The translations under genes were made by a program, and so were the position numbers. A model generated the notes under the pieces. That model had not been told where the DNA came from. It saw only the letters and a list, made by a program, of their open reading frames with translations, and did no database searches. 555 bases of DNA from a phage. Where the stretch lies: sequence record EF517112.1; one strand, given 5' to 3'. The first letter of the stretch is position 1, and the number at the start of each line of letters is the position of its first letter. Positions 21 through 555 of the stretch are shown in pieces.

Positions 21-99
21 TAATGGTGTACCTAAAGTGACCTCTAAGAATGGTGATTATATTGTATTAGTATCACTTTAACTTAAGGACCAACATAAA

Positions 100-107
100 G
101 GGAGGAG
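100..107 (+). promoter_or_regulatory. Shine-Dalgarno / ribosome-binding site for gene 19.5
   Basis: The sequence gggaggag (100-107), with core GGAGG at 101-105, has a 6-nt spacer (agactc) before ATG 112. This is typical of strong T7 late-gene RBSs. Confidence 0.8.
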
Positions 108-111
108 ACTC

Positions 112-261
112 ATGTTCCGCTTATTGTTGAACCTACTGCGGCATAGAGTCACCTACCGATTTCTTGTGGTACTTTGTGTTGCCCTTGGGTACGCATCTCT
201 TACTGGAGACCTCAGTTCACTGGAGTCTGTCGTTTGCTCTATACTCACTTGTAGCGATTAG
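112..261 (+). CDS. 19.5: T7-type gene 19.5 protein: 49 aa small basic/hydrophobic protein of unknown function (MFRLLLNLLRHRVTYRFLVVLCVALGYASLTGDLSSLESVVCSILTCSD)
   Basis: ATG at 112-114 and in-frame TAG at 259-261, translated by hand codon by codon. GGAGG at 101-105 sits 6 nt upstream of the ATG. It is the only ORF in the window with a credible RBS. The protein and the surrounding DNA match my recollection of T7 gene 19.5 immediately left of the terminal repetition. The product has a basic N-terminus (R3, R10, H11, R12, R16), a hydrophobic core (about F17-L30) and an acidic, Cys-containing C-terminus (C22, C42, C47). Confidence 0.88.
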   Translation: MFRLLLNLLRHRVTYRFLVVLCVALGYASLTGDLSSLESVVCSILTCSD

Positions 262-343
262 GGTCTTTCTGACCGACTGATGGCTCACCGAGGGATTCAG
301 CGATATGATTGCATCACACCACTTCATCCCTATAGAGTCAAGT

Positions 344-400
344 CCTAAGGTATACCCATAAAGAGCCTCTAATGGTCTATCCTAAGGTCTATACCTAAAG
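344..400 (+). repeat. Two copies of an imperfect ~20-bp direct repeat (cctaaggtatacccataaag / cctaaggtctatacctaaag)
   Basis: 344-363 and 381-400 both read CCTAAGG + T(C) + TATACC + (CA)TAAAG, differing by small indels and substitutions. The copies are spaced 37 bp start to start. Confidence 0.7.
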
Positions 401-429
401 ATAGGCCATCCTATCAGTGTCACCTAAAG
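344..429 (+). repeat. ACCTAAAG-family short repeat array between gene 19.5 and the TR (SRR-like array of T7)
   Basis: Perfect ACCTAAAG at 393-400 and 422-429; one-mismatch variants CCATAAAG at 356-363 and CCTAAGG at 344-350 and 381-387. Further copies lie outside this span: ACCTAAAG at 30-37 and 540-547, ACATAAAG at 93-100, ACTTAAAG at 516-523. All are on the + strand. A specific 8-mer is expected about 0.02 times in 555 bp on both strands; four perfect copies are observed. Confidence 0.75.
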
Positions 430-468
430 AGGGTCTTAGAGAGGGCCTATGGAGTTCCTATAGGGTCC
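401..468. other. Cluster of mutually complementary short palindromes / inverted repeats (potential alternative stem-loops or cruciform)
   Basis: ataggcc (401-407) is the exact reverse complement of ggcctat (444-450). atagg (401-405) and cctat (410-414) form a local hairpin with a 4-nt loop. cctatagg (457-464) is a perfect 8-bp palindrome and can also pair with either of the others. agggtc is directly repeated at 430-435 and 462-467. Confidence 0.5.
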
Positions 469-500
469 TTTAAAATATACCATAAAAATCTGAGTGACTA

Positions 501-555
501 TCTCACAGTGTACGGACTTAAAGTTCCCCCATAGGGGGTACCTAAAGCCCAGCCA
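501..555. repeat. Left boundary and first 55 bp of the T7-type direct terminal repetition (TR, 160 bp in T7); truncated by the window edge
   Basis: tctcacagtgtacgga...gttcccccatagggggtacctaaagcccagcca matches the well-known T7 genome end sequence (TCTCACAGTGTACGGACCTAAAGTTCCCCCATAGGGGGTACCTAAAGCCCAGCCA) with one apparent difference at 518 (T where I recall C). The distance from the gene 19.5 start (389 bp) matches the T7 spacing I remember. Not verified by alignment. Confidence 0.8.
526..538. other. GC-clamp palindrome ccccc-ata-ggggg inside the terminal repetition, overlapping a GGTACC (KpnI) site at 537-542
   Basis: Five C (526-530) and five G (534-538) flank a 3-nt ATA centre. This is the only G/C homopolymer pair in the window and it lies within the TR. 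Confidence 0.5.

Follow-up and report, generated by a model that had tools for sequence, protein, structure and literature searches.

What, if anything, reads the short repeats at the ends of the phage T7 genome, and why do they all point the same way? The question is raised by a 555-nt stretch of a phage sequence record (EF517112.1; hereafter the window), which includes the repeat array that precedes the right terminal repeat (TR), as well as the first two repeat copies inside the TR. The repeated unit is the heptamer CCTAAAG. It is enriched at the genome junction and locked to one strand; the layout of its arrays is conserved among relatives, whereas its sequence is specific for each lineage; units are gained and lost, and parts of the arrays are dispensable. 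Tentatively, we regard the arrays as a landing pad, redundant and of low specificity, on which the complex for maturation and packaging would gather, a reading suggested by comparative sequence analysis that we consider possible but short of probable.

The feature itself has long been known: one-directional short repeats around the T7 TR were described decades ago. An earlier reading of the window from its letters (the original prediction) had listed a strand-biased, over-represented family of octamers (ACCTAAAG) and proposed that it forms a protein-recognition array, possibly for terminase, a replication factor or a nucleoid protein. That observation is real, although the family's left limit and one of its copies were wrongly drawn, and the function is a candidate one.

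A strand-locked heptamer at the T7 genome junction

The window aligns end to end with positions 39278-39832 of phage T7 (V01146), with 548 of 555 nucleotides identical (98.7%); window position p thus corresponds to T7 39277+p. It represents the right genome end of a T7 variant, starts 49 nt downstream of the phiOR start site and holds gene 19.5, the non-coding DNA that separates this gene from the right TR, and the beginning of the TR. The complete TR of T7 is 160 nt long.

In the T7 genome, ACCTAAAG occurs 15 times on the + strand and 3 times on the - strand, and 13 of the 15 + copies fall within positions 1-340 or 39670-39843. For the comparison of k-mers, the junction region was defined as the 170 nt before the TR, the TR and the 190 nt after it, and was set against the remainder of the genome. 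The top-ranked T7 k-mer is CCTAAAG, with 13 + and no - copies in the 520 nt of the junction versus 6 and 3, respectively, in the 39,257 nt of the interior (Poisson 2e-24); the same heptamer is top-ranked in T3 (9 copies at the junction versus 9 elsewhere, 1e-13). When up to one mismatch is allowed, the T7 junction region of 590 nt contains 24 + and 3 - copies, versus 98 and 101 in the 39-kb interior. A compositional origin of the over-representation and strand bias is ruled out, as the interior of T7 shows neither; the bias is confined to the junction region.

The unit of the family is shorter than the proposed octamer. A repeated motif does exist, but in an alignment of the 24 T7 copies the information is confined to seven core positions, the flanks carry little and the spacers are not conserved. 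The informative unit is therefore the heptamer CCTAAAG, its leading A being a mere preference. All four perfect octamers are present on the + strand where they had been placed (Table 1), versus 0.03 expected, and none of 200 shuffles reached four. At up to one mismatch, the window holds six octamers, all on the + strand (0.76 expected). Two of the three claimed one-mismatch copies stand (ACATAAAG at 93-100 and ACTTAAAG at 516-523), whereas the one at 356-363 (CCATAAAG) has two mismatches to the octamer, yet contains CATAAAG (357-363), which is one mismatch away from the heptamer. The two CCTAAGG variants (344-350 and 381-387) and the count of TAAAG (7 on + and 2 on -) had been given correctly. 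The pair formed by CCTATGG (446-452) and CCTATAG (457-463), in place of which T3 has two perfect CCTAAAG, had been missed.

At its left side the array ends earlier than supposed. Window positions 340-555 hold eight heptamers with up to one mismatch on the + strand, versus 0.55 expected from the T7 interior; positions 1-339 hold three, versus 0.86 expected, which is close to chance. The two copies upstream of gene 19.5 (30-37 and 93-100), originally counted as family members, lie outside the conserved array; we exclude them because of this near-chance density and because their positions are not conserved in T3 or K11. The copies between 344 and 463 are located 38-157 nt left of the TR start (501), and those between 516 and 547 lie inside the TR.

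Spacing of the units is partly regular. Ten of the 13 consecutive heptamer spacings in T7 175-355, within the left array, equal 13 nt, and two pairs in the window (344/357 and 381/394) have the same spacing. Tandem Repeats Finder reports a single weak 13-nt array in the window (2.3 copies, 369-398). Neither this result nor the differing spacers fit a homogenised satellite-like tandem repeat; tandem repetition of whole units including the spacer does occur locally, in a related contig described below (L073) and in T7 280-338.

The seven differences from reference T7 (window 14, 35, 77, 179, 268, 303 and 518) are all G:C>A:T transitions, the pattern typical of a line that has undergone chemical mutagenesis or deamination, and no record of the phage collection has them. 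Two of them affect the motif: the private G>A at 35 made the copy at 30-37 perfect (reference T7 reads ACCTAGAG), and the private C>T at 518 damaged the copy at 516-523, which is ACCTAAAG in reference T7 and ACTTAAAG here. The change at 179 replaces Ala by Val in gp19.5.

Table 1. Features of the window (positions 1-555) and of the repeat copies within it
Feature	Position	Strand	Remarks
ACCTAAAG, created by a private change	30-37	+	probably outside the array
ACATAAAG, just upstream of the gene 19.5 ribosome-binding site	93-100	+	probably a chance match
Gene 19.5	112-261	+	49 aa; context only, outside the array; mostly missing from the viable clones MZ375238 and MZ375266
CCTAAGG, first unit of the array left of the right TR	344-350 (T7 39621-39627)	+	T3 ortholog is a perfect CCTAAAG
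CATAAAG	357-363	+	13 nt beyond the first unit; ortholog of T3's second CCTAAAG; deleted in OL964748
CCTAAGG unit	381-387	+	37-nt direct repeat with 343-364; deleted in OL964748, damaged in MZ375266 by a 9-nt deletion
Perfect ACCTAAAG	393-400	+	13 nt after the 381-387 unit
Perfect ACCTAAAG	422-429	+	heptamer present in 15/16 natural T7-like sequences (L155: CCTCAAG)
Pair CCTATGG-agtt-CCTATAG	446-463	+	directly upstream of the conserved core
Conserved core CCTTTAAAATATACCATAAAAATCTGAGTGACTA	467-500	+	ends at the left TR boundary; not a heptamer repeat
Right TR, first 55 nt	501-555	+	begins with TCTCACAG at 501 (T7 39778)
ACTTAAAG, TR-internal copy 1	516-523	+	T3 and 9/16 of the natural T7-like sequences read CCCAAAG
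Perfect ACCTAAAG, TR-internal copy 2	540-547	+	heptamer kept in 13/16 natural T7-like sequences

Layout, lineage-specific sequence and turnover of the arrays

Related loci were gathered from IMG/VR with a 25-nt pattern, and several genomes, including that of SP6, were added. In the lineages of Autographiviridae examined, the layout on the + strand is constant and consists of an array to the left of the TR, copies inside the TR and a second array after the sequence ATCTGT(T). This three-part layout is observed in T7, T3, K1F, K11, PPWS4, Kvp1-like contigs, L135 and SP6, each lineage having its own 7-mer. CCTAAAG occupies the corresponding places in T3, phiSG-JL2 and SH2, whereas the top junction heptamers are CCTACAG in K1F, ACCTGAG(G) in K11, CATTAGG and CCTCAAG in PPWS4, CCTTATG in Kvp1-like contigs (up to 10 copies), and CTATCAG in L135 (10 copies). 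In SP6, which belongs to a different subfamily, the + strand of the junction carries all 10 copies of CTTAGT(G), and two of these precede the TR. Within the junction region, no copy of the respective top heptamer was found on the - strand in any of the 33 related loci or in any of the six genomes (five Studiervirinae and SP6). Conservation of position and orientation in relatives of T7, on which the original prediction had staked its case, is thus borne out as far as SP6, with the exact 7-mer varying by lineage.

The arrays bracket both TR boundaries, adjoining the terminase cleavage sites; the earlier claim that the motif brackets the TR boundary agrees with the arrays found on both sides and the copies found inside. 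The second array follows directly after ATCTGT(T), its units often being 12-14 nt apart. This sequence is ATCTGTT in T7, T3, K11, PPWS4, L135 and SP6, and ATCTGTA in K1F and the Kvp1-like loci. The TR of SP6 (174 nt) ends in GGGCTA and is followed by TCTGTT, which rebuilds ATCTGTT across the TR boundary, and the CTTAGT(G) array comes next (SP6 175-400). The layout of a pause site followed by an array reaches beyond Studiervirinae.

The most conserved stretch across genera is the core at 467-500, which is common to T3, PPWS4, Kvp1-like and other lineages; its pattern across lineages, ...CCTTTAAGAAT..ACA.AAAAATCTGAGTG..TA, ends at the left cut site. Distant Studiervirinae (T3-like, Klebsiella and Pectobacterium phages) align only over window 454/467-534, and the part from 467 to 534 comprises the core plus the first ~34 nt of the TR. 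Window 467-534 probably holds the essential cleavage and packaging determinant, with the core as the candidate pac determinant. Just upstream of the core, heptamers form a tandem pair in T7, T3, K11 and PPWS4, while K1F has three and Kvp1-like contigs have one. The T7 pair at 446-463 is the positional equivalent of CCTAAAGn6CCTAAAG in T3, CCTGAGn5CCTGAG in K11 and CATTAGGn6CATTAGG in PPWS4. Among T7-like sequences, the pair varies in its middle bases (CCTATGG, CCTGAGG, CCTAGGG and CCTAAGG for the first unit; CCTATAG and CCTAGAG for the second), and its CCT and final G are nearly invariant, the two exceptions being TCTGAGG (L140) and CTTAGAG (L146).

The right array is almost invariant among 16 natural T7-like sequences, and motif and spacer are not separable there. 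The first unit (344-350) reads CCTAAAG in 4 of the 16; the second TR-internal copy reads CCCAAAG in L073 and L149 and CCTAAAT in L030. In the more divergent left arrays of T7-like sequences, 12.0% of the aligned residues depart from T7 within heptamers and 22.2% within spacers (Fisher 8e-6), figures obtained from sequences that are not independent and with an alignment that favours matching repeats. No perfect CCTAAAG is left in the left arrays of L073 and L154. L073 (an IMG/VR contig of 32,448 nt) carries instead CCTAACGaccat four times in tandem, in which a heptamer variant was amplified together with its spacer. This amplification can serve as a snapshot of how a variant heptamer takes over an array.

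Units also change in viable laboratory clones of T7. One 13-nt unit was lost in MZ375267 (L160), whereas in the left array of OL964748 (L159) one unit was duplicated and one lost. A heptamer-to-heptamer deletion of T7 189-332 (144 nt) left 3 of 14 left units in MZ375272 (L158). On the right side, OL964748 lacks T7 39565-39664, i.e., three right-array units (among them that at 344-350) and an inverted repeat, and MZ375238 lacks T7 39429-39617, i.e., gene 19.5 and the inverted repeat, with the array intact. The copy at 393-400 is kept in OL964748 and MZ375238 and is fused and damaged by the 9-nt deletion of MZ375266, while that at 422-429 is kept in all three evolved clones inspected. Among the T7 sequences listed in the spread sample, every one covers the window from 388 to at least 500, the exception being the 9-nt deletion of MZ375266.

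Three of these clones have point changes inside the pause heptamer ATCTGTT at the border between the TR and the left array (A161C in L158 and L160; T162C in L159). Because any base change in ATCTGTT is reported to abolish its function (bioRxiv 10.1101/2021.01.11.426313), these clones may have lost the junction pause. Near T7 395-415, L158 and L160 also carry a change in phiOL from ...ACTCACTATAAGGAGA to ...ACTCACTATAGGGAGA, which is closer to the consensus T7 promoter.

The inverted repeat mentioned above is an imperfect one at window 291-331 (AGGGATTCAGCGATATGAT/ATCACACCACTTCATCCCT), ~190 nt left of the TR, and is conserved in T3 and K11. It is presumably the 'hairpin' site of Chung and Hinkle, where the 'hairpin' processing intermediate was reportedly mapped. 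Folding predictions give it little stability (-4 kcal/mol, z = -0.77), viable clones lack it, and it does not belong to the motif family.

A second strand-biased layer is formed by T7 primase pentamers (GGGTC, TGGTC and GTGTC), which lie on the + strand of the window at 373-377, 417-421, 431-435 and 463-467 (and also at 261-265). Counts were made over 200 nt on the inner side of each TR, before the right copy and after the left one (T7 161-360), with ~0.85 expected per 200 nt per strand. Six genomes, in which the pattern was first seen by eye, contain 21 + (4.7 expected) and 5 - pentamers in the right array and 1 + and 12 - (5.0 expected) in the left array. The pattern was replicated on six further lineages (right 20 + and 2 -, left 0 + and 10 -), giving 41 + and 7 - on the right and 1 + and 22 - on the left in the 12 lineages (including L001, L009-L012, L161 and L130-L147). 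This orientation corresponds to the lagging-strand template of forks running off each end, and would suit lagging-strand priming.

Candidate roles of the arrays

Two one-direction processes cross the junction, namely phiOR-driven transcription and the action of terminase. In replicating concatemers, and only there, the right array, a single TR and the left array make up one block of ~590 bp, with ~24 heptamers in the same direction, surrounding two terminase cut sites and the ATCTGTT pause site of T7 RNA polymerase. According to the landing-pad reading, this block would define an orientation and would concentrate and orient on the junction the complex of gp18, gp19 and prohead, which would be recruited beside the paused polymerase, while the essential determinants would reside in the conserved core (467-500) and the cut sites. 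We infer that a protein binds the array and that this protein would be the terminase. In favour of this reading we count the extreme, strand-exclusive enrichment at the junction, the layout that recurs on the same strand in each lineage with its own 7-mer, heptamers that diverge about half as fast as the spacers (with the caveats given above), and the copies next to the core at the left cut site. The gp18 proteins of T3 and T7, both of which have CCTAAAG, are also interchangeable (PMC3276506). Published work supplies several elements of the scheme. The polymerase pauses at ATCTGTT, and the left array of T7 starts 6-8 nt after it (bioRxiv 10.1101/2021.01.11.426313); packaging initiation in vivo needs the phage RNA polymerase (PMC1828717), and the complex of polymerase and lysozyme pauses at the junction and has interactions with gp18 as well as gp19 (PMC3276506). 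The small terminase subunit gp18 is the DNA-binding packaging subunit (PMC2366019, PMC1828717), and one paper divides Pac into PacB, which gp18 recognises, and PacC, which gp19 cuts (PMC9860248).

A small terminase subunit that reads the heptamer base by base is contradicted by natural mosaics. gp18 belongs to Pfam PF11123, and a search for a solved structural homologue found none. Its identity to T7 gp18 is 92% in T3, 45% in K1F, 72% in K11 and 65% in PPWS4, a range that by itself would allow co-variation with the heptamer; to judge from the sequences, natural mosaics break it. The Salmonella Typhi phage Vi06 (L162, NC_015271; 33713-33982) is T7-like overall and has a gene 18 of the Kvp1/CCTTATG-lineage type (cf. 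L146), so that gp18 and heptamer type are uncoupled by a natural exchange of modules. Its gp19 matches T7 at 95% identity over the C-terminal 439 aa, and its gene 19 is interrupted by an ORF for an HNH endonuclease. The mosaics rule out base-specific co-evolution of gp18 with the heptamer, and given this lack of co-variation, whatever reads the array must do so generically. The candidate reader would recognise roughly CCTNNRG in a direct-repeat array, plus periodicity; the middle bases would drift and be homogenised in each lineage by unit duplication and unequal recombination. Within the first ~50 residues of gp18, a block (R32-H47) has 13 of 16 positions invariant across five genera, and its conservation makes such generic recognition possible.

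Several observations weigh against a landing pad for terminase. The Vi06 junction has CCTAAAG of the T7 type, and its gp18 is 95% identical to that of the CCTTATG lineage, with residues 1-70 identical; moreover, three gp18 types that are ~73% identical to each other are all paired with CCTAAAG. Packaging specificity, in which T3 and T7 differ, maps to gp19 and the terminal 5% of the DNA (PMC3276506). As T3 and T7 share the heptamer and differ in specificity, the heptamer is not the determinant of packaging specificity. Viable laboratory clones lack most of the left array (MZ375272) or three right units, half of that array (OL964748), and because clones without T7 189-332 or 39565-39664 are viable, the arrays do not seem essential in culture. 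Finally, gain, loss and tandem amplification of units alone could produce lineage-specific repeats without a reader.

This last point leads to a rival explanation that we consider somewhat unlikely, though to be taken seriously, in which the arrays have no sequence-specific reader and are self-perpetuating short repeats of the non-coding DNA beside the TR, generated and homogenised by slippage and unequal recombination and tolerated, or weakly useful, as spacer DNA. Unit number indeed changes quickly in laboratory lines (MZ375267, OL964748, MZ375272), the spacer was amplified along with the heptamer variant in L073, heptamer identity is independent of gp18, promoter type and host, and large parts of the arrays are dispensable in culture. 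Yet the layout and strict orientation persist from T7 to SP6 despite complete turnover of the sequence, and the same heptamer occurs in three compartments with unrelated spacers, unlike a homogenised whole-unit satellite; heptamers also diverge less than spacers, and no reverse-strand copies accumulate. A further view, which we hold to be unlikely, treats the arrays as an ancient orientation-locked part of the junction that is read for polarity and periodicity rather than for exact sequence, with drift and re-homogenisation of the units and an independent, strand-flipping primase layer marking the replication ends. One way would be for them to give a polar signal that loads or orients the terminase motor or serves a hand-over from polymerase to terminase, as KOPS do for FtsK. 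If polarity is what is read, the sequence would be free to drift and would therefore follow neither gp18, promoter type nor host.

The remaining alternatives assign the heptamers to other processes at the genome end. A role in end replication or concatemer formation, decidedly unlikely in our estimate, would have the arrays, together with the primase sites, position the last lagging-strand primers or the loading of helicase-primase just inside the TR, leaving only the TR single-stranded for annealing into concatemers. Primase pentamers do cluster at both ends, on the + strand before the right TR and on the - strand after the left TR, and several left-array heptamers directly precede primer-like ACCA, ACCC or ACAC; however, heptamers keep one orientation across the TR while primase sites flip, and the two signals appear independent. 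The heptamer lacks the GTC primase core, right-array and TR-internal heptamers are not followed by ACC, and in the first six genomes the primase sites were tested only after the pattern had been seen. A replication factor as reader, one of the original suggestions, fits poorly with the single heptamer orientation on both sides of the TR, and a replication role fits the primase sites better than the heptamers. We give little credence to transcription-elongation elements, i.e., heptamers that slow or hold T7 RNA polymerase near the class II pause and so make the terminase-recruiting landmark last longer. With respect to transcription from phiOR, all copies are on the non-template strand, the left array of T7 begins at the pause position, 6-8 nt after ATCTGTT, and packaging needs the paused polymerase (PMC3276506), but the real signal, ATCTGT, is conserved in all lineages examined and the heptamers are not; viable evolved clones, furthermore, have changes in ATCTGTT itself. 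The heptamers track neither promoter nor polymerase type: T3 and T7 have the same heptamer and different promoters, K1F and PPWS4 share the promoter core AACTATCACTAT and differ in heptamer, and the heptamers of K11 and SP6 show no promoter resemblance. A host nucleoid or other host DNA-binding protein, also suggested originally, is barely credible as reader. The repeats are short and, in T7, partly AT-rich, and they lie close to the end of the DNA that is first to enter the cell; the heptamer, however, goes with phage lineage rather than host, as T7 and K1F differ in heptamer although both infect E. coli, and Vi06 and the phiA1122-type Yersinia phages have the T7 heptamer.

Other identities were rejected. 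Promoter-like fragments or decoys are ruled out, as promoter consensus and heptamer do not co-vary in K1F, PPWS4, K11 and SP6; CTAAAG does span positions -5 to +1 in T3 promoters and in several promoters of T7 (those at 7778, 7895, 11180, 12671 and 13341). A class II pause or termination signal is ruled out for the heptamer, which does not match ATCTGTT, the true signal being located at T7 161-167, outside the window. Rfam covariance models gave one sub-threshold chance match in the window (E = 0.29), and searches of the window for sigma-70 promoters and terminators gave nothing above chance.

T7 is a main model for the cutting and packaging of concatemers of a terminally redundant genome, and is in wide use as a platform for phagemids and transducing particles, for which the T7 'pac' fragment is needed (PMC9860248, PMC13236587). 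If the landing-pad reading is true, the efficiency and fidelity of packaging would be set by the arrays, which engineered constructs should then retain or adjust; were the arrays neutral, ~300 bp could be removed. The comparative results narrow the search for a reader, away from a host factor, promoter recognition and base-specific contact by gp18.

Comparison with known repeat systems

The arrays are the same object as the short repeats known as SRL and SRR in T7: we take the repeats at 344-547 to be SRR and the TR-internal copies, and the left array to be SRL. Dunn and Studier are said to have described these arrays with the T7 genome sequence in 1983, and the names SRL and SRR reportedly come from the 1990 work of Chung and Hinkle on T7 packaging. 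The heptamer, the 13-nt spacing and the single orientation match, and the window covers the right array and the first two TR copies, from which it differs by its seven private substitutions, one adding a copy and one damaging another. We know of no demonstrated function of SRL or SRR, and, in keeping with the original prediction, the searchable literature contained no paper assigning one; the open searchable full text, outside which the classical T7 papers lie, contained no discussion of CCTAAAG, SRL or SRR. The finding restates a feature described decades ago.

More distant parallels differ in what is repeated and who reads it. In the 'a' sequence of herpesviruses, arrays of the direct repeats DR2 and DR4 surround pac1 and pac2. 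Like the T7 heptamers, they are short direct repeats that vary between lineages and in copy number and lie within a terminal repeat, next to conserved signals for cleavage and packaging; neither the viruses nor the enzymes are related, however, and the herpesvirus repeat units are longer. KOPS for FtsK and SRS for SpoIIIE are polar motifs that orient DNA translocases. Like the heptamers, they are short and asymmetric, and in both cases the meaning would lie in the direction that a motif takes with respect to a translocase on double-stranded DNA. KOPS are spread over whole chromosomes, whereas the T7 heptamers are confined to ~600 bp at the junction, and their reading by terminase is a proposal.

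The R sites of lambda cosB and the pacL and pacR boxes of SPP1 are recognition arrays for small terminases, in which the sites match the cognate small terminase. They share with the T7 arrays the repetition of short sites beside the cut, which would assemble an oligomeric small terminase; they differ in that heptamer identity in T7 shows no co-variation with gp18 and large parts of the arrays are dispensable. Because co-variation with the small terminase defines this class of sites, we do not assign the T7 array to it. At pac of phage P1, clusters of the hexamer TGATCA/G lie on both sides of the cleavage site and are palindromic Dam sites with a demonstrated regulatory role. There, too, clusters of a short motif bracket the terminase cut and single copies are redundant, while the T7 heptamers, known here from sequence, are asymmetric, strand-locked and far more numerous. 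By analogy, the hexamer clusters of P1 pac and the small-terminase site arrays of lambda and SPP1 would be the closest functional counterparts of the T7 repeats.

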